A DNA stretch of 55,103 nucleotides from a bacterium (GTDB lineage Bacteria; Patescibacteriota; Patescibacteriia; JAACEG01; JAGUWE01), in contig JAZDOD010000009.1 of assembly GCA_043798995.1 (NCBI GenBank), forward strand, positions 80,015 to 135,117, written 5' to 3'. The notes under the pieces were generated by a model, which was not told the DNA's origin, did not search any database, and saw only the letters and a program-made list of their open reading frames with translations. The first letter of the stretch is position 1. Each line of letters opens with the position of its first letter. Below, one piece after another: positions 5,606 through 55,047 of the stretch. Made by a program: the position numbers and the translations under genes.

Positions 5606-6376
5606 ATGGAAGTGATTATTACTAAAAATTATCAAAAAATGTCCGAGGTTGCTGCTTCGGTTGTGGCTAGGGCTATTGCCAAAAATAAAAAGATTGTTTT
5701 GGCCTTGCCGACCGGCAAAACACCGCGGGAATTGTACCGCTTTTTAATTAAAGCTTATCGGCGCGGCAGTATTAGTTTTAAAAAAGCAGTTGCTTTTAAT
5801 TTAGATGAATACATCGGTTTAAGTCCGGCGGATAAAGCCAGTTATCATTTTTATATGAAAGAATTTTTTTTTAAGTTTATTGATATAAAATCTAAAAATA
5901 TTTTTATTCCCGATGGCCAAGCCCGCCTGCCAAGGCCTGGAGCCAAGGCGACTGGCGGGCAGGCTAAAAATTTAGCCGCCGAATGCCGCCGTTACGAGAG
6001 AGAAATTAAAAAGCAAAATGGTCTTGATTTGGCAATTTTGGGTTTAGGCAAAAATGATCATCTTGGCTTTAACGAGCCGGGCTCAAGTTTTAATTCCAAA
6101 ACCAGAGTAGTTAAATTATCAGAAGCGACGAGAAAAACCAACGCTAAATTTTTTAAAGGCAGAAAAATTCCCAACTTTGCTATTACTATGGGACTTAAAA
6201 CAATTTTTTCCGCCAAAAAGATAATCCTTCTGGCTTCGGGCAGGGAAAAAGCTGAAGCGGTTAAAAAAGCTCTAAAAGCGCCGATTAGTCCTCAAATTCC
6301 AGCTTCAATTTTGCGTCAACACCCCAATGTGATTTTTATTCTTGACCGCGCCGCGGCTTTCAAAATAAAAAAATAA
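5606..6376 (+). CDS. nagB: Glucosamine-6-phosphate deaminase (carries a 14-codon repeat-derived insertion)
   Basis: LALPTGKTP, DEYIGL and GLGKNDHLGFNEPGS motifs. The extra segment ARLPRPGAKATGGQ is encoded by the GC-rich element at 5922-5963. Confidence 0.85.
   Translation: MEVIITKNYQKMSEVAASVVARAIAKNKKIVLALPTGKTPRELYRFLIKAYRRGSISFKKAVAFNLDEYIGLSPADKASYHFYMKEFFFKFIDIKSKNIFIPDGQARLPRPGAKATGGQAKNLAAECRRYEREIKKQNGLDLAILGLGKNDHLGFNEPGSSFNSKTRVVKLSEATRKTNAKFFKGRKIPNFAITMGLKTIFSAKKIILLASGREKAEAVKKALKAPISPQIPASILRQHPNVIFILDRAAAFKIKK
5922..5963 (+). repeat. Family B GC-rich element, 42-nt form, in frame inside nagB
   Basis: The sequence is cccgcctgccaaggcctggagccaaggcgactggcgggcagg. It is 42/42 identical to the reverse complement of 15086-15127 in topA, so both copies have the same orientation relative to the coding strand. 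Confidence 0.9.
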
Positions 6377-9326: not shown

Positions 9327-9363
9327 TTTTTTTTGAAGTTATAATAAGATAGAACTAAAAATG

Positions 9364-9436
9364 TGTCAGGGGCGGGGATTGAACCCGCGACCTTAGGTTT
9401 ATGAGTCCTATGCTCTACCAACTGAGCTACCCTGAC
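9364..9436 (-). tRNA. tRNA-Met (anticodon CAT; elongator or Ile2-type not distinguishable)
   Basis: The reverse complement folds as GTCAGGG-TA-GCTC-AGTTGGTA-GAGC-A-TAGGA-CTCATAA-ACCTA-AGGTC-GCGGG-TTCAATC-CCCGC-CCCTGAC-A. There is one A.A mismatch at 31:39. CCA is not encoded. Confidence 0.9.
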
Positions 9437-9474
9437 AAAAAAGTGGGCGGGTGAGATTTGATATTTTATTTTTG

Positions 9475-9638: not shown

Positions 9639-9770
9639 GACATTTGACATTTGCCTGCCCGCCAATTGCCAATGAGTCACTCGGTGATTTTAACAGATAT
9701 TTTAATAAAAAGCTTGATAAAATTTGGAAGCTTTCTTAATTGGCTTTGGCAGGCGGGAGCTTTGAGATTT
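9639..9770. repeat. Family B element, long intergenic form (reverse orientation relative to the nagB copy)
   Basis: GACATTTGACATTTG-CCTGCCCGCCAATTGCC, then ~74 nt of AT-rich filling, then AATTGGCTTTGGCAGGCGGG-AGCTTTG. Both ends match the ends of the 42-nt form (15/17 and 16/17 nt). Confidence 0.8.
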
Positions 9771-13144: not shown

Positions 13145-15436
13145 CTATTTTTCTTCTTGTGGTTTTTGCCAGGAAACATAATCGCATTTGGGATAGTTTG
13201 AACAGCCGTAGAAGAAACGGCCGCGTTTGCTGCGCCGGCGGACTACTATTCCCTCCTGGCATTTGGGGCATTTGATTTCCTCGCCCTTTTCATCAGTAAT
13301 TTTAAAATTATTATTTAAATGTTTAGTATTTTTGCAATCGGGATAACCAGAGCAGGCCAAAAATTTGCCAAAACGGCCCGTTTTAACAACCATTGGCTGG
13401 CCGCACTTTTCGCAAATAACATTGGTTTCTTCATTATTTTCATTTTGAGATTTTTTCTCGCCATTTTCACCGGCCCTGGCTAAATCTTGGGTATATTTGC
13501 AGCGCGGAAAATCAGAGCAGGCCAAAAATTTGCCAAAACGGCTCATTCTGGTAACTAAAGGCGAGCCGCATTTGGGACATTTTTCCTCAGTCACCTCACC
13601 CAGGATTTTTTCTTTGGAAAGCGTCTTTTCTTTTTGGGTTAAATTTTTCTTAAAGGGCTCATAGAAATCAGCAATCACCGGCTGCCAGGCAGTTTCTCCC
13701 TGGGCAATTTTATCAAAGTCATCTTCCATTTTAGCCGTAAACTGGTAGTCAACTATTTGAGAAAAATGTTCAGTTAAAAGATCGGTCACTAAGAAAGCAA
13801 CCTCGGTTGGTTTTAAACGGCCGGTTTCTTTTAGGATATAACCGCGATCCTGAATGGTGCTGATAATCGGCGCGTAAGTTGAAGGCCGGCCAATGCCGTA
13901 ACTTTCCAATTTTTTAATGAGTCCCGCTTCTGAATAGCGAGCCGGTGGCTGGGTGAAATGCTGATTATTTTTTATCTCAAGAAGAAGCAAGTCGTCGCCC
14001 GCTTTAACTTGGGGTAGAATCGTTTCACTGGTGGCAGTTTGATAAATTTTTAAAAAGCCCTTAAATTTGATTATCTGGCCATTAGCCAGAAAAATGTAAG
14101 GCGTCTTTTGGGCCTCAATTTCCAAAGCGGTCTGATCAAAAAAAGCATCGGTCATCTGGGAGGCGACTGTCTTTTGCCAGATTAATTGATAGAGTTTAGC
14201 TTGGTTTTTATCTAAATAATTTTTGATTTTTTCCGGCTCCCGGAAAACACTGGTTGGCCTGATTGCTTCATGGGCTTCTTGGGCTAGTTTGGCTTTGGTT
14301 TTATAATATTTTTTGCCCCTGAAGTAGCCGGATTCAAAATTATTTTTAAGGTAACTCGCAACCTCGTCTAAAAATTTTTCTGCCAGATTCAGCGAGTCGG
14401 TTCGCATATAAGTAATTAAACCAACAGAGCCCTCCTCTCCTAATTCAATGCCTTCATAAAGTTGCTGGGCTAACCTCATTGTTTGTTTGGCCGAGAAACC
14501 AAAACGGCGGTTGGCTTCCTGCTGCAGAGTGGAGGTGATAAAAGGCGGCGGGCTTTTGCGGATAACTTCTTTTTTTCTGACATTTAAAACTTGATACGAA
14601 GCATTTTTTAAGTTTTTTAAAATTTCCTGGGACTGAGTCTCATTTTTTATTTCTAACTTATCAATTTTCTGACCGTTGATTTTATCAAGATGCGCGGAAA
14701 AAGATTCTCCGCTGGCTTTTTGGGTTTTGCCATCAAGCGGATCAAAAATAGCGTCAATGGTCCAATATTCATCTTTTTTAAAGGCCTGGATTTCTTTTTC
14801 TCTTTCAACGATTAATTTGACCGCCACCGATTGGACGCGGCCGGCTGAAAGTTTTTTGGTGACTTTACGCCAAAGAAAAGGCGAGAGTTCATAGCCGACT
14901 AAGCGGTCTAAAATGCGCCGGGCTTGCTGGGAATCAACTAAATTCAAATTAAGATCGCGCGGTTCTTTTAAGGCATTGTCAATCGCTTCTTTGGTAATTT
15001 CATGAAAAACAATACGTTCTACCTTACTTTTGACTTTTGCCTGCCCCGTAGCTCCGCCAGTTGGCGGATGCTTCGGGGACTTTTGCCTGCCCGCCAGTCG
15101 CCTTGGCTCCAGGCCTTGGCAGGCGGGACTTTTGACCTCATTCAAGCCCAAGGCTTGGGTGAGGTGCCAGGCAATAGCTTCGCCTTCGCGATCTTCATCG
15201 GTGGCTAGAATTATTTTATCGGCTGATTTCAGTTGAGCCTTTAAATCTTTGACAACTTTTTTAGCTTTGCCGGGGATAATATAATGAGGCGCAAAATTGT
15301 TTTCAATCTCAATACCCATTTTGTTTTTAGGCAAATCTCGGACATGGCCGTAGGAAGAAGCGACCTGATAATTTTTATCCAAAAATTTGGCAATAGTTTT
15401 GGCTTTGGTTGGCGATTCAACGATAACGAGATTCAT
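13145..15436 (-). CDS. topA: DNA topoisomerase I with C-terminal zinc ribbons (carries a 34-codon repeat-derived insertion)
   Basis: TOPRIM start MNLVIVESPTKAKTI and DEDREGEAIAWH. Several CPKCG/CEKCG zinc ribbons. The extra segment SPACQGLEPRRLAGRQKSPKHPPTGGATGQAKVK lies between ...GLNEVK and SKVERIVFHEITK. Confidence 0.9.
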   Translation of the reverse strand: MNLVIVESPTKAKTIAKFLDKNYQVASSYGHVRDLPKNKMGIEIENNFAPHYIIPGKAKKVVKDLKAQLKSADKIILATDEDREGEAIAWHLTQALGLNEVKSPACQGLEPRRLAGRQKSPKHPPTGGATGQAKVKSKVERIVFHEITKEAIDNALKEPRDLNLNLVDSQQARRILDRLVGYELSPFLWRKVTKKLSAGRVQSVAVKLIVEREKEIQAFKKDEYWTIDAIFDPLDGKTQKASGESFSAHLDKINGQKIDKLEIKNETQSQEILKNLKNASYQVLNVRKKEVIRKSPPPFITSTLQQEANRRFGFSAKQTMRLAQQLYEGIELGEEGSVGLITYMRTDSLNLAEKFLDEVASYLKNNFESGYFRGKKYYKTKAKLAQEAHEAIRPTSVFREPEKIKNYLDKNQAKLYQLIWQKTVASQMTDAFFDQTALEIEAQKTPYIFLANGQIIKFKGFLKIYQTATSETILPQVKAGDDLLLLEIKNNQHFTQPPARYSEAGLIKKLESYGIGRPSTYAPIISTIQDRGYILKETGRLKPTEVAFLVTDLLTEHFSQIVDYQFTAKMEDDFDKIAQGETAWQPVIADFYEPFKKNLTQKEKTLSKEKILGEVTEEKCPKCGSPLVTRMSRFGKFLACSDFPRCKYTQDLARAGENGEKKSQNENNEETNVICEKCGQPMVVKTGRFGKFLACSGYPDCKNTKHLNNNFKITDEKGEEIKCPKCQEGIVVRRRSKRGRFFYGCSNYPKCDYVSWQKPQEEK
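15026..15134 (-). repeat. Composite GC-rich insertion in topA: [ACTTTTG]x2 - 39-nt hairpin - [ACTTTTG] - 42-nt family B element - [ACTTTTG]
   Basis: 15040-15078 is CCTGCC-CCGTAGC-TCCGCCA-GT-TGGCGGA-TGCTT-CGGGG. 15086-15127 is the exact reverse complement of 5922-5963. The net added length is 102 nt (34 codons). Confidence 0.9.
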
Positions 15437-16551: not shown

Positions 16552-16561
16552 AAGCTCTTGA

Positions 16562-16706
16562 CCCCCCACCTATTCCAATGTAATACTTCTATAACTGAAC
16601 CTTTGATAGGCGAAGCCGCGCTCCGTCGCTAAAGCTTTGAAGCGTCGGCGACCTTACGGCTCTGTTCCTCGGCAAAAGAAAATAATTCTTTAGAATAGGT
16701 GGGGGG
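16562..16706. repeat. Perfect 14-bp inverted repeat (CCCCCCACCTATTC / GAATAGGTGGGGGG) bracketing 117 nt with a GC-rich core
   Basis: The arms are at 16562-16575 and 16693-16706. The core contains AGCCG...GTCGC...GCGAC...CGGCT nested stems. Confidence 0.8.
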
Positions 16707-16735
16707 TTGACAAATTTTGTTATTTATGCTAAGTT
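16707..16735 (+). promoter_or_regulatory. Sigma70-type promoter (TTGACA - 17 nt - TGcTAAGTT) with no downstream + strand CDS
   Basis: TTGACA at 16707-16712; extended -10 TGCTAAGTT at 16727-16735. Confidence 0.5.
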
Positions 16736-20264: not shown

Positions 20265-20436
20265 AGGGTGTCTAAAAGTATATTACAACAAAAAATTATA
20301 ATTGCCAATTTTTTTAAGGGTTAACAAAGGGTTTAAACCCTTTTTGCTCTTTCTTATTTTTTATGTTAAAATAAATTTTAATAGAGATTAGTTTAAGTTT
20401 ACCATGTTGGTAAGATATCTGACAGCGGCATTTCTT

Positions 20437-20543
20437 TACCCCCACACCCAAAAAGCCCCATTTCTCAAGGCAGGAATGAAGGGTGTGAGAAAAATAAATT
20501 CCATAGAAAAGCCCTGCCATTCATGATGGAGTGTGGGGGTTTA
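20437..20543. repeat. Family C repeat, two tandem units closed by AAACCCCCACAC / GTGTGGGGGTTT
   Basis: Unit 1 is CCCACACCC...GGGTGTGAG (20441-20489). Unit 2 is AAAGCCCTGCCATTCATGATGGAGTGTGGGGG (20507-20539). The region explains the spurious ORF 20314-20520. Confidence 0.7.
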
Positions 20544-20579
20544 CTTTGTGCCAAATTGGGCACATAGCTCAGCTGGTTA

Positions 20580-20623
20580 CCCGCCCGACTCGCTGCAGAC
20601 GCAGTTGCGTCGAAGCGGGCGGG
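20580..20623 (+). repeat. 44-nt hairpin block in the D loop (between positions 21 and 22) of the outer tRNA-Val
   Basis: CCCGCCCG-ACTCGC-TGC-AGAC-GCA-GTTGCGTCGAAG-CGGGCGGG, with an 8-bp perfect closing stem. Confidence 0.8.
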
Positions 20624-20639
20624 GAGCGCTACATTCACA

Positions 20640-20743
20640 CCCGCCTGCCTTGGCCGTTTAGCTCAGCTGGTTAGAGCGCTTCGTTCACATCGAAGAGGTC
20701 GAAGGTTCAAATCCTTCAACGGTCATAGTTTTAGGCGGGCAGG
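20640..20743 (+). repeat. 104-nt family B element in the anticodon loop of the outer tRNA-Val, carrying a complete tRNA
   Basis: CCCGCCTGCC-TT-[tRNA 20652-20725]-TAGTTTTA-GGCGGGCAGG. The termini pair over 10 positions with one C.A mismatch and one U.G wobble. Confidence 0.85.
20652..20725 (+). tRNA. tRNA-Val (anticodon CAC), nested
   Basis: GGCCGTT-TA-GCTC-AGCTGGTTA-GAGC-G-CTTCG-TTCACAT-CGAAG-AGGTC-GAAGG-TTCAAAT-CCTTC-AACGGTC-A. Confidence 0.95.
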
Positions 20744-20761
20744 TTGTAGAGGTCTCTGGTT

Positions 20762-20792
20762 TGACCCTGCGGGTCATCTCCCGTAGGGATGA
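20762..20792 (+). repeat. 31-nt double mini-hairpin block in the T loop (between positions 55 and 56) of the outer tRNA-Val
   Basis: TGACCC-TGC-GGGTCA followed by TCTCCC-GTA-GGGATGA. Removing it restores the T loop TTCAAGT. Confidence 0.7.
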
Positions 20793-20878
20793 CAAGTCCA
20801 GATGTGCCCATAAAGATGTTTGGCACTATTTAAGAATTTCATACTTAAAAGATAAAAATCAAATCAATCTTTAGCTGG

Positions 20879-21466
20879 ATGTCTTTATTTTTTATCAAAA
20901 GCAAAAAAAAACAATTTCCCCGAGGCATTAGCCGCATTGAACTGGTAGTAGTACTGCTGGTAGCTCTTTTTTTCGCTTTTCTTATTAAGATGAGATTTAG
21001 TTATTACCAAGCTAAAGCCATTGATTCAGCCCGGGCTTACAATTTAAATATTATTACCCAGGCCTTGGAATTTTATCATCAGGAAAAAGGTTATTATCCG
21101 CCTTACATTCTAAATTATCCGACCATTTCCTTTGGCCACATTATTAACGGCACCAACGATGTTTTAACCAAGGAATTGGCGCCAAACTATCTTGACAAAT
21201 TAGATCCGAGTCTTTATAATTCGCAAAGTTTTATTTACGGAGCCAAAAGAGAAAATATAACCTTTACGCTTAATTGTCAAGAGGGTTCTTTTAGCTACAC
21301 CGTGCCGACCAACTTTTCTTATTGCGGCTATAATTTGGCTAAATGTTTTGACGGCAAAGATTATTATATTGTATACTGCTTACAGCGTTTGCCGGTTAAA
21401 GATAATACTCATTTAATTGAGAGACATACCGGCAACTGGGTAGTTAGCGAGGAAGTTCAAATTTAA
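20879..21466 (+). CDS. Type IV pilin-like / pseudopilin protein
   Basis: The N-terminus KKQFPRG-ISRIELVVVLLVALFFAFLI resembles the prepilin cleavage/methylation motif (G|xxxxE + hydrophobic helix). It is not a perfect match. Confidence 0.5.
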   Translation: MSLFFIKSKKKQFPRGISRIELVVVLLVALFFAFLIKMRFSYYQAKAIDSARAYNLNIITQALEFYHQEKGYYPPYILNYPTISFGHIINGTNDVLTKELAPNYLDKLDPSLYNSQSFIYGAKRENITFTLNCQEGSFSYTVPTNFSYCGYNLAKCFDGKDYYIVYCLQRLPVKDNTHLIERHTGNWVVSEEVQI

Positions 21467-34703: not shown

Positions 34704-34746
34704 CAGCGAGATTGCCACGTCCGCCAACTGGCGGACTCGCAATGAC
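34704..34746. repeat. GC-rich hairpin element sharing modules with the topA insertion and family A
   Basis: CAGCGAG-ATTGCCACG-TCCGCCAACTGGCGGA-CTCGCAATGAC. The 16-mer at 34720-35 is the exact reverse complement of 15053-15068. The ...CTCGCAATGAC end matches 44200-44210. Confidence 0.8.
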
Positions 34747-44100: not shown

Positions 44101-44210
44101 GTCATTCTGAACGAAGTGAAGAATCTCGCGGGAGTGTTAGCGACCCGCGAACACGGGTCAGCCTACGGCTTCCCGTGAGATTGCTTCGTCGCTTTACTCC
44201 TCGCAATGAC
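44101..44210. repeat. Family A-related composite repeat, copy 4 (GTCATTCTGAACGAAGTGAAGAATCTC ... CTCGCAATGAC)
   Basis: Four stacked hairpins between the two ComEC-derived ORFs; outer termini GTCATT/AATGAC. Confidence 0.75.
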
Positions 44211-53256: not shown

Positions 53257-54687
53257 ATGGTTTTCTCAATAATCCAAAAATCGCAAATTGAAGACACAAA
53301 GCGGCTAGATGCTGAATATTATCAGCCGGAGTATTTAGAAGTGGAGAAAAAACTCAAATCAATTAATACTAAAACGATTGGCGAAATATCAGATAGTGTT
53401 GTAAATTTCGGCGCATACTCGTTATGTAATTATATCCAATGGCAAGATGGTGGAGTGCCTTATTTAAATGTTCAAGATATCAAAGATGGTTATATTGATT
53501 TTGACGATACAAAATTTATTGGCGAAAAAGTAAACGAGATTTTAAAAAAATCAGAAGTAAGCGAAGGACAGGTTATTCTAACGATGGCTGGGACTATCGG
53601 AAATGCCGCGGTAGCACATAAAATTCCTTTAAAGGTAAATTCAAATCAGGCAACCGCAAAGATTACATTAAAAAAAGAAATTTCTCCGTATTTTTTAACG
53701 GCATTTTTAGGTTCATATTATGGTAAAAATCAAATAATTCGTGAAATTGTTAGTAGCGTTCAGCCAAATATATTCTTATTTCAGATTAAAAATTTTAAAG
53801 TTCCAATTGCAACACAAAAAGAACAAAAAGAAATTGAAAAAATCTATATTCACGGATTGGAGGAATTAGAGAACTCTAAATTATTTTATCGCCAAGCCGA
53901 GAATTCATTTTTTAAACAATTAAATTTACAAAATTTTAAAAATGATGGTTTATTGTCCATATCTATAAATTTGGCCGATATAAAAATAGTCAATCGTTTT
54001 GACGCAGAATATTTTAATTCACCTAGCAATAAAATGCTGGCGATAATCAATAAAGGTAAAATTGCCAAACTTAGCGACTTGGTGGAAATGACTAAGGGCG
54101 TTGAGCCCGGGGCGGAAGCGTATCAAGAGCCCTCCGACGCTCCCACCGGCGCTGAAGCTATGGCGGGCAAGGAAACTATGGAGGGTAAAAAGGGGAAGTT
54201 ATTTATCCGCGTCAGCAGTATTTCCAAAGACGGAATTATTAATAAAGACCAAAAATATATAAGCGAAGATTTATATAATGAATATAAAAAAGATTATCAG
54301 CCACAGGTTGGAGAAATATTATTAACTAAAGACGCCAGCCCGGGGATTGCTTGTTTAGTGCGTGAACCGATAGAAGGAATTGTCGCCAGCGGTGTTATGC
54401 GATTAAAAATTAAAGAAAAAATTAATTTGGAATATTTGACACTGGTATTAAATTCTATTGTCGGCCGCCTGCAAGCCGAACGGGATGCCGGCGGGTCAAT
54501 TATCGTCCATTGGAAACCGGAGCAAATAAAAAATTTAGTCGTTCCAATTTTACCCGTTTCAACGCAAAATAAAATTGGCGATTTAATATCGCAATCTTAT
54601 CAGGCGCGCAAAAAAGCGAAAGAATTATTAGAAGAAGCAAAATTAAAGGTTGAGGAAATGATAGTAAATAATCAATCATTAAAATGA
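53257..54687 (+). CDS. hsdS: Restriction-modification specificity subunit (HsdS-type, two TRDs)
   Basis: RLDAEYYQPEY / RFDAEYFNSP repeat starts, and central and C-terminal conserved helices (ATQKEQKEIEKI / STQNKIGDLISQ). Confidence 0.8.
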   Translation: MVFSIIQKSQIEDTKRLDAEYYQPEYLEVEKKLKSINTKTIGEISDSVVNFGAYSLCNYIQWQDGGVPYLNVQDIKDGYIDFDDTKFIGEKVNEILKKSEVSEGQVILTMAGTIGNAAVAHKIPLKVNSNQATAKITLKKEISPYFLTAFLGSYYGKNQIIREIVSSVQPNIFLFQIKNFKVPIATQKEQKEIEKIYIHGLEELENSKLFYRQAENSFFKQLNLQNFKNDGLLSISINLADIKIVNRFDAEYFNSPSNKMLAIINKGKIAKLSDLVEMTKGVEPGAEAYQEPSDAPTGAEAMAGKETMEGKKGKLFIRVSSISKDGIINKDQKYISEDLYNEYKKDYQPQVGEILLTKDASPGIACLVREPIEGIVASGVMRLKIKEKINLEYLTLVLNSIVGRLQAERDAGGSIIVHWKPEQIKNLVVPILPVSTQNKIGDLISQSYQARKKAKELLEEAKLKVEEMIVNNQSLK

Positions 54688-54839: not shown

Positions 54840-54844
54840 GTTAA

Positions 54845-54881
54845 TCGCAACCGACATGTACTGCCATTATACTATAGCCCA
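54845..54881 (-). other. tRNA-like 5' fragment (acceptor strand + D arm + anticodon-loop-like TTGCG), truncated at the end of the RM island
   Basis: The - strand reads TGGGCTA-TA-GTAT-AATGGCA-GTAC-A-TGTCG-GTTGCGA. I found no matching 3' half. Confidence 0.4.
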
Positions 54882-54916
54882 TTGAAAAGGTGGGCCGGGT
54901 CCAAGTGCTCGCGTTT

Positions 54917-55024
54917 CGCCCGACTGCCTTGACTATCGGGGTGCGGAGAATTGAACTCCGGCCACATGCACCCCATGCACGCGTACTACCGTTATACTAC
55001 ACCCCGGCAGTCAAGGCGGGCGGG
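54917..55024 (-). repeat. GC clamp enclosing tRNA-Pro (arms CCCGCCCGCCTTGACTGC / TAGTCAAGGCAGTCGGGCG)
   Basis: The arms at 55024-55007 and 54935-54917 pair as GCCTTGACT/AGTCAAGGC, a 4-nt bulge, then CGCCC/GGGCG. The CCCGCCCG terminus is shared with 20580-20623. Confidence 0.8.
54936..55006 (-). tRNA. tRNA-Pro (anticodon GGG)
   Basis: CGGGGTG-TA-GTAT-AACGGTA-GTAC-G-CGTGC-ATGGGGT-GCATG-TGGC-CGGAG-TTCAATT-CTCCG-CACCCCG-A. Confidence 0.9.
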
Positions 55025-55047
55025 CACTACCGTTACGCTACACCCCG
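55025..55047 (-). other. tRNA-like 5' fragment duplicating the acceptor strand + D arm of tRNA-Pro
   Basis: CGGGGTGTAGCGTAACGGTAGTG(C) versus CGGGGTGTAGTATAACGGTAGTAC is 21/24 identical, with compensatory changes at D-stem pair 11:24. Confidence 0.5.

Follow-up and report, generated by a model that had tools for sequence, protein, structure and literature searches.

We describe a tRNA locus at positions 20558–20810 of a 55,103-nucleotide stretch of a contig from an ultra-small bacterium (JAZDOD010000009.1, assembly GCA_043798995.1, Patescibacteriota), hereafter the window, in which one complete tRNA-Val(CAC) gene lies inside another. Two smaller hairpin blocks also split the outer gene. We find it probable that a DNA-level cassette, resembling a miniature inverted-repeat transposable element (MITE), brought a replacement tRNA into this site, and that the outer gene has recently been disabled, surviving as a shell in which small hairpins now accumulate. 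We favor this explanation because different outer Val(CAC) genes carry cassettes with the same termini at one and the same site, 37/38, because nests of this kind reach three layers and their outer genes show all stages of decay, and because relatives whose neighboring LytR protein is ~46–50% identical keep the gene order with no tRNA at the site.

The outer copy is a cloverleaf with the invariant bases only once three blocks (20580–20623, 20640–20743 and 20762–20792; Table 1) are removed computationally. The remaining 74 nt, GGGCACATAGCTCAGCTGGTTAGAGCGCTACATTCACATTGTAGAGGTCTCTGGTTCAAGTCCAGATGTGCCCA, are called as tRNA-Val(cac) by ARAGORN, with a 7-bp acceptor stem, a 4-bp D stem and 5-bp anticodon and T stems, all paired, an anticodon loop TTCACAT and a T-loop TTCAAGT. 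In the encoded sequence, insertions break all three of the anticodon, D and T loops. The inner and outer tRNAs have the D-arm, anticodon loop and variable loop in common, whereas their acceptor, anticodon and T stems differ by paired changes. The inner tRNA-Val(CAC) is presumed to be the working gene. This parsing had been made before, in an annotation drawn from the letters of the window by themselves (the sequence-only reading), and agrees with the sequence base for base; the 74-nt cloverleaf with anticodon CAC, its four fully paired stems, the independent tRNA-Val(CAC) at 20652–20725 (ARAGORN; Rfam RF00005, 70.2 bits) and the placement of block 2 at the canonical intron site, between A37 and T38, were all reproduced. 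The ARAGORN check that it proposed, and a scan with Rfam, gave a divided answer: the inner tRNA is called, and the outer gene in the unspliced sequence is missed by both programs, ARAGORN calling it only when spliced.

The minimum free energy (MFE) fold of the full 253 nt (−120.5 kcal/mol) keeps the outer cloverleaf and extrudes the three blocks as hairpins. Terminal inverted repeats able to form hairpins bound block 2 (CCCGCCTGCC/GGCGGGCAGG) and block 1 (CCCGCCCG/CGGGCGGG). The block 2 clamp is imperfect, with one C·A mismatch and one G·U pair. Block 3 had been described as two mini-hairpins, but the MFE fold favors a single 9-bp hairpin. Note that block boundaries can slide by 1 nt, for example within the T run at 20760–20762.

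Table 1. Coordinates of the nested tRNA loci and of related features in the window.
Feature	Position	Strand	Description
tRNA-less hairpin element, 43 nt	5921–5963	+	Block 2 termini CCCGCCTGCC...GGCGGGCAGG; inside nagB-like open reading frame (ORF) 5606–6376
~102-nt element	9656–9757	-	Exact block 2 termini; AT-rich, non-tRNA interior; upstream of parA
Two adjacent hairpin elements in topA	15037–15130	.	Second (15085–15127) is the reverse complement of the nagB copy; both in-frame, translated
Most conserved intergenic motif	20343–20379	+	TTTTGCTCTTTCTTATTTTTTATGTTAAAATAAAT; TTGCTC-17-TAAAAT; kept in window, L001, L002, L123, L124
Palindromic element, ~100 nt	20440–20545	.	ACCCCCACACCC...GGAGTGTGGGGGT; between putative promoter and outer tRNA
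Outer tRNA-Val(CAC), piece 1	20558–20579	+	Acceptor 5' strand, U8-A9, D-stem 5' strand, D-loop to GGTTA; same bases in L123
Block 1	20580–20623	+	44-nt GC-rich hairpin CCCGCCCG...CGGGCGGG in outer D-loop; fold −26.8 kcal/mol
Outer piece 2	20624–20639	+	D-stem 3' strand, G26, anticodon stem 5' strand, loop TTCACA (positions 32–37)
Block 2, tRNA cassette	20640–20743	+	104 nt, between positions 37 and 38 of outer gene (A37/T38)
Block 2, left clamp	20640–20649	+	CCCGCCTGCC; followed by spacer, inner tRNA 20652–20725, spacer
Inner complete tRNA-Val(CAC)	20652–20725	+	ARAGORN; Rfam RF00005, 70.2 bits
Block 2, right clamp	20734–20743	+	GGCGGGCAGG
Outer piece 3	20744–20761	+	T38, anticodon stem 3' strand, variable loop, T-stem 5' strand, T54-T55
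Block 3	20762–20792	+	31-nt hairpin element in outer T-loop, between T55 and C56; fold −18.5 kcal/mol
Outer piece 4	20793–20810	+	Remaining T-loop, T-stem 3' strand, acceptor 3' strand, discriminator A
Second nest, tRNA-Pro(GGG) 54936–55006	54900–55047	-	18-nt clamp 55025–55008/54935–54918, in D-loop of older tRNA-Pro-like gene

We propose that the locus holds two generations of one gene, the outer tRNA-Val(CAC) being the former resident. A palindromic, MITE-like element with a complete tRNA-Val(CAC) between its inverted-repeat ends would have inserted at 37/38, destroying and replacing the resident in one step. The 12 nt between clamp and tRNA are too short for another promoter, so the inner tRNA would be transcribed from the promoter upstream of the outer gene, and ordinary 5' and 3' tRNA-processing enzymes would presumably release it. 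The outer gene would persist as a non-decoding shell that accepts further hairpin elements because it is dispensable, and would later have been hit by block 1 in its D-loop and block 3 in its T-loop. In other lineages, such shells would mutate, lose stems or halves, or be invaded again. Only insertions into a cognate gene would survive, since there the cargo restores the lost function; alternatively, cassettes may spread by homologous recombination between related genomes via conserved tRNA flanks, which is plausible in competent hosts. We infer DNA-level insertion, the functional identity of the tRNAs and their co-transcription. Observed directly were the build of the locus, the termini that it shares with other elements, the variable presence of blocks 1 and 3, the occurrence of such nests in other genomes, nests with several layers and outer genes at successive stages of decay.

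The block 2 termini recur elsewhere in the window, at 5921–5963, 15085–15127 and 9656–9757, which fits one element family with a variable interior. The nagB and topA copies had been noted in the sequence-only reading, and both are present, each inserted in-frame. The interior of the 9656–9757 element could be decayed cargo or a different cargo. In topA, three copies of the direct repeat GACTTTTG bound the two elements, and the residues that these elements add lie between the Toprim and core domains. Alignment with solved TopA structures from the PDB places ~36 extra residues at amino acids 100–139, coinciding with the hairpins. We therefore conclude that these hairpins remain in the mRNA and are translated, which argues against general RNA-level excision of such elements. 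Only loosely similar copies of blocks 1 and 3 were seen in the window. Both of these blocks (by comparison with the contig L123, below) and the 20440–20545 element (by comparison with the contig L001) vary in presence between related genomes.

No known insertion rule accommodated all of the junctions. Those of IS200/IS605 and REP/RAYT elements (insertion 3' of a fixed tetranucleotide, without duplication), the 2-nt cores of serine recombinases or IS110-type elements and the TA duplications of IS630-type elements each failed to fit some of them, and the GTT..AAC of integron attC cores occurs here in the wrong order. Other palindromes were also seen in the window. The 20440–20545 element and another at 16561–16707 form a separate family of ~100–150 nt with C-rich and G-rich ends (ACCCCCACACCC.../ACCCCCCACC...). 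Further strong GC-rich hairpins lie at 54090–54169 (within the HsdS-like ORF 53257–54687), 44125–44177 and 34713–34741, and the end of the one in the HsdS-like ORF, ATGGCGGGCAAGG, is like the right end of the cassette.

Nests are not confined to this genome. We scanned GTDB, one genome per species, for two D-arm motifs too close together for tandem genes, and found many nest loci in genomes labeled Doudna-, Parcu-, Woyke-, Sacchari-, Curtiss-, Buchanan-, Magasanik- or Kaiserbacteria, Paceibacterota or plain Patescibacteria. The layout starts with a tRNA 5' half, after which a C-rich and a G-rich clamp arm enclose a complete tRNA of that isotype, often with the matching 3' half at the end. Isotypes include Val(CAC, TAC and GAC), Ile(TAT and GAT), Met, Thr and Ala, with Pro in the window itself; the insertion site is mostly the anticodon loop and sometimes the D-loop, and nests have up to three layers. 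The exact block 2 termini, together with the insertion point of the window (TTCACA^CCCGCCTGCC...GGCGGGCAGG^T, where ^ marks a junction), are repeated at six further sites, namely in L040 (Woykebacteria), in L119 and in four metagenome contigs, L182, L217, L204 and L210. In L040, L182, L204, L210 and L217, the inner tRNAs are one family (acceptor GCACGCA/TGCGTGC), with anticodon stems that vary by compensatory changes, while the outer genes and their acceptors are all different. Across seven intact outer Val(CAC) genes from different genomes, 99.3% of cloverleaf cells are paired and double compensatory changes separate 13 of 21 pairs. These are, or were until recently, genuine tRNA genes. Two further loci, L013 and L049, are syntenic with coding flanks 72–74% identical. 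Their cassettes (~110 nt, including the non-tRNA clamp and spacers) are 100% identical and their outer genes differ at ~12 of 74 positions. The simplest explanation is that one cassette recently spread into two resident genes that had diverged beforehand.

Not every match to such patterns was a nest. Among 99 metagenome matches to CCCGCCYGY followed by a tRNA start, 7 were true nests and the rest mostly GC-rich promoter regions of high-GC bacteria. Matches outside the phylum were mostly tandem truncated tRNA copies. In L009, L026, L032, L069, L074 and L090 (Bacteroidota and others), a complete tRNA-Ala or tRNA-Arg is preceded by a tandem array of truncated tRNA 5' portions, in each of which an odd stem-loop (for example, GTCCCGATGGTAATCGGGAAGGTC) replaces the anticodon arm, a phenomenon distinct from the Patescibacteria nests. 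tRNA-Ile(TAT) nests with longer and more AT-rich inserts were seen in L013 (4288–4362), L021, L063 and L113, the last having the anticodon-loop segment CTTATA on both sides of the insert. Scans of viral contigs yielded no clamp-type cassettes, and a phage source is thus unsupported. Two IMG/VR contigs (L230 and L231) carry phage-borne tRNA-like genes with short insertions in or beside the anticodon loop, each after a tRNA 5' fragment.

Outer layers range from perfect to fragmentary. Structure is perfect in the window, L123, L182, L217, L122 and the middle layer of L119, and the outermost layer of L119 has perfect stems with the anticodon CAT. Defects are slight in L040 (one acceptor mismatch and a 6-nt loop) and L013 (a T-loop with C55). 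The anticodon stem 3' strand is missing in L070, L102 and L037; another hairpin stands in place of the T-arm in L004; 5' and 3' halves are mismatched to each other in L058; the 3' half is missing in L210 and in the window's own Pro nest; and both outer layers of the three-layer nest of L124 are heavily degraded. We read these graded defects as disabled genes at different ages. In the Pro nest, the older tRNA-Pro-like gene keeps its 5' part (55047–55026; 54917–54900) with an anticodon loop CTTGGA, its 3' half is gone, and no such half was found in the window. Beyond this nest (54840–55047, minus strand), CCCGGCCCACC is followed by a third tRNA-like 5' fragment, GGGCTATAGTATAATGGCAGTAC (~54880–54858), also with no matching 3' halves.

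Orthologous loci date the insertions relative to one another; the source records of the relatives are ENA ERZ27247960 and SRA SRR22388041. No exact matches of two window proteins flanking the nest were found, and a first scan of genome contigs with the LytR protein gave no matches. An ENA contig, L123, was recovered via the protein encoded downstream of the nest (94% identical). Its spliced outer pieces and its inner tRNA are each identical to those of the window at 74 of 74 positions, and its clamp has three changes, with pairing kept through wobbles. Block 3 is absent, leaving the T-loop TTCAAGT unbroken, and in place of block 1 a different 38-nt double mini-hairpin lies in the D-loop, three bases further upstream. 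Blocks 1 and 3 are thus recent, variable insertions, and, since L123 lacks them yet has another D-loop hairpin, small hairpins must insert repeatedly into the shell. The flanking intergenic DNA of L123 and the window differs by 15 substitutions in 338 aligned bases (~4.4%) and 7 indel events. The sequence-only reading had offered the possibility that a hairpin element with a replacement tRNA hit this gene very recently; the element itself is supported by shared termini, recurrence and decay, but "very recently" holds only in a relative sense, as the nest is older than the split between window and L123 (about 4–5% neutral divergence).

More distant relatives extend the series. L001 (LytR 80% identical) ends inside a similar nest, with the outer 5' half to the anticodon loop, CCCGCCTAAATTT and a complete tRNA start; both it and L002, Logan contigs, stop inside or just before the nest. 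The 20440–20545 element is present in L123 and missing at the aligned position in L001. Contigs L124–L126, from three Logan samples (downstream protein 77% identical), carry a three-layer nest in which the outermost layer is degraded yet has a diverged copy of the L123 D-loop hairpin. The middle layer has broken stems and hybrid sequence, and the innermost Val(CAC), placed in the D-loop of that middle layer, is the sole intact layer. In the relatives with LytR ~46–50% identical, neither a tRNA nor the pilin-like gene lies between lepB and LytR, and because both are missing from the same intergenic site, the tRNA and the pilin-like gene may have arrived together.

Several observations sit uneasily with a mobile cassette. 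No transposase, recombinase or integrase was found by Pfam among the ~60 ORFs of the 55-kb window. Target-site duplications are inconsistent: CA..CA in Val nests, TA..TA in the L013 Ile nest, CTTATA..CTTATA in L113, the triple GACTTTTG of topA and none at either block 1 or block 3. That the outer gene is intact is mildly puzzling, since 0 of 74 changes relative to L123 would have p ~0.03–0.04 if it were neutral, and every insertion in the outer genes of window and L123 is in a loop, never a stem. Some outer pairs (L013/L049) differ by compensatory changes. A diverged version of the L123 D-loop hairpin occupies the equivalent spot in L124, a much more distant relative, and, if that hairpin was inherited, the intact outer gene would be old. 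That cassettes occur only in cognate tRNA genes is also unexplained; survivorship or homologous recombination through the tRNA flanks could account for it.

Other explanations were weighed against these data. The outer gene might instead be kept by selection as a non-decoding, tRNA-like shell around the inner precursor, with conserved stems and loops free to expand. Such a shell could define where RNase P, RNase Z or the CCA enzyme enters, or could protect or pace maturation. The confinement of insertions to loops amid perfectly paired stems, an outer gene unchanged while its flanks changed by ~4.4% and the necessary co-transcription of inner and outer tRNAs would suit such a role. So would the acceptor and T stems that outlast the anticodon arm in the degraded L070, L102, L037 and L004, although the 3'-half searches required an acceptor complement, so that acceptor-stem survival is partly ascertainment. 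We consider this role unlikely, as many nests have no shell or mismatched halves (L058, L210, L078, L124 and the window Pro nest) and ordinary tRNAs in the same window need none. It is rather less likely still that the nest grew in place, a tRNA-less hairpin entering the anticodon loop first and the inner tRNA then being copied there by duplication, template switching or gene conversion. Inner and outer tRNAs do share long identical runs that vary by genome (22 nt in the window and 28 nt in L001, with a run of 31 nt in L182 that takes in the anticodon stem), the hybrid layers of L124 indicate inter-layer recombination, and tRNA-less copies of the same element exist. Yet in the window the acceptor, anticodon and T stems of the two tRNAs all differ by paired changes, the GCACGCA family of inner tRNAs sits in genomes with unrelated outer genes, and L013 and L049 combine identical cassettes with different outers. 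The chance that the contig is mis-assembled or chimeric, joining two tRNA-Val loci, is negligible. Short-read assemblers do break here, L001 and L002 ending inside or just before the locus, but the same nest was independently assembled in the ENA contig L123, analogous nests occur in the three Logan samples of L124–L126, many GTDB metagenome-assembled genomes (MAGs) and JGI contigs, and a chimera would not put a complete tRNA exactly at 37/38 with matching clamp arms.

The sequence-only reading had also offered removal or processing at the RNA level as a possibility. In such a case, the hairpins, and the clamp with the inner tRNA, would be excised by a bacterial pathway of a new kind that ligates the outer pieces, so that one gene yields two tRNA-Val; in a variant, the clamp would hold the two halves together once RNase P and RNase Z had freed the inner tRNA. 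The exact excision of three blocks does yield a canonical tRNA in which every invariant base is present, and block 2 occupies 37/38, where archaeal and eukaryal introns canonically lie. L182, L217 and L119 have intact outers with this junction too, and the outer pieces are better conserved than their flanks. Nevertheless, neither the joined 74-nt tRNA nor the clamp-held halves found support, and we regard the proposal, both versions together, as improbable. The bulge-helix-bulge (BHB) motif, in which a 4-bp helix separates two 3-nt bulges, is absent from every junction; the closing pairs of all three hairpins abut the junctions in the MFE fold, and loop bases 32–35 lack a pairing partner at the 3' end of block 2 (..GGCGGGCAGG^T). 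Blocks of 44, 104 and 31 nt are far below the size of group I or group II introns, and Rfam, at gathering thresholds and at E ≤ 10, returned only four ordinary tRNAs in the window, with no intron, ribozyme or tRNA-fragment match. A splicing pathway would need to recognize unrelated hairpins at arbitrary positions, including T55/C56, while same-family elements stay in the topA mRNA and are translated. Excision restores a 7-nt anticodon loop only with the window-type junction; in the commoner (TT)CA^helix...helix^CA(A/G)G nests (L013, L047, L049, L058 and L122), a single excision leaves a 9-nt loop. The outermost layer of L119 has a changed anticodon, and no EndA, RtcB or RNase III was found among the ~60 ORFs scanned against Pfam in these 55 kb of genome. 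Extended to Patescibacteria at large, a pathway that excises clamp-held inserts and hairpins and rejoins the rest, leaving the intact outers (window, L123, L182, L217 and the L119 middle layer) as working genes with one transcript giving two tRNAs, is more doubtful again.

The nearest known kinds are mobile palindromic repeats and elements that target a tRNA gene and then restore it. Rickettsia palindromic elements (RPEs) and bacterial MITEs, such as the Correia elements of Neisseria, are likewise short palindromic hairpin repeats in a small AT-rich genome, with many copies sharing termini. Their insertion sites include intergenic DNA, RNA genes and, in-frame, protein genes, and their presence differs between close relatives. 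RPEs, like the topA elements here, are translated within protein genes. They differ in that target-site duplications are inconsistent here and no transposase was found in the 55-kb window. To our knowledge, no described RPE or MITE carries a complete tRNA, is nested in a cognate tRNA or is multi-layered, and we found none with a complete tRNA gene as cargo in the searchable literature. Integrative elements that target tRNA genes (phages and islands) also use a tRNA gene as target, restore the disrupted function and leave partial tRNA duplicates. Such elements span kilobases and carry an integrase gene; no more than the 3' (rarely the 5') part of the tRNA is replaced, and the displaced fragment ends up at the far end. 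In contrast, the unit here is ~100 nt (104 nt), a whole tRNA is its sole gene and the halves of the old gene flank it directly. We found no integrase or kilobase-scale cargo at the locus, whose neighbors are LytR and the pilin-like gene.

Intron-like systems are less similar. Archaeal multi-intron, split and tri-split tRNAs, which depend on BHB motifs with EndA and RtcB, have up to three interruptions, one of them at 37/38, and GC-rich complementary flanks. Thermoproteales tRNA introns behave as mobile elements. Here, however, the host is a bacterium, no junction forms a BHB, one interruption falls at T55/C56, the "intron" holds a whole tRNA and the outer layers decay in related genomes. Group I introns also interrupt the anticodon loop of bacterial tRNAs (Leu, fMet, Ile2 and Arg), but they are at least ~200 nt long with a conserved catalytic core, whereas the blocks here are 31–104 nt and have no Rfam intron match. 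Intervening sequences of 23S rRNA, removed by RNase III without re-ligation, are hairpin insertions in loops that vary among strains; for a tRNA, however, cuts in the anticodon, D and T loops would abolish function. The full-text literature that we searched describes bacterial tRNAs with group I introns, BHB introns and split tRNAs of archaea, and rRNA-gene introns in this phylum. Nested or hairpin-interrupted bacterial tRNA genes were not found described.

If a mobile cassette with a replacement tRNA is indeed responsible, it would be an element whose only cargo is the gene that it destroys, making each insertion self-complementing. This would allow occupancy of an essential, single-copy tRNA gene in minimal tRNA sets. 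It would also explain the nested and fragmentary tRNA genes that recur in Patescibacteria genomes and, as far as we could find, have gone unreported, and provide a bacterial counterpart to the archaeal debate on mobile introns and split tRNAs. Should splicing at the RNA level prove true, bacteria would have a first case of tRNA splicing that is protein-dependent and non-group-I. The nests affect tRNA annotation of MAGs, as ARAGORN and Rfam miss the outer genes and assemblies tend to end at such loci, and they illustrate the speed of tRNA gene turnover and exchange between naturally competent lineages.

Upstream of the outer gene, the motif at 20343–20379 is possibly the promoter of the whole nest. 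We assign it this putative role because of its conservation only; a scan with the sigma-70 consensus called no promoter on the plus strand, including at this motif. The clamp might alternatively be a general leader-trailer processing helix of tRNA operons; in the window, tRNA-Met (9363–9436) has a left-arm-like sequence only and tRNA-Leu has none. The sequence at tRNA-Met (minus strand) is TCACCCGCCCAC, upstream at 9437–9460; it is like the left junction of the cassette (TTCA^CCCGCC), lacks a matching right arm and may be a clamp remnant.

On one side, the neighbors of the nest are a divergently transcribed LytR/LCP gene and genes for Der, Pth, DprA and TopA; on the other are genes for a pilin-like protein of 195 amino acids, signal peptidase I and HisRS. 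Named matches to LytR are Patescibacteria, Buchananbacteria, Falkowbacteria and Parcubacteria among them, at 42–51% identity, and there are a few metagenomic relatives at 68–95% identity. Natural-competence genes in the window are ComEC, DprA and a pilin-like gene. The gene directly downstream of the nest (20879–21466) is type IV pilin-like, with an N-terminus resembling geopilin domain 1.

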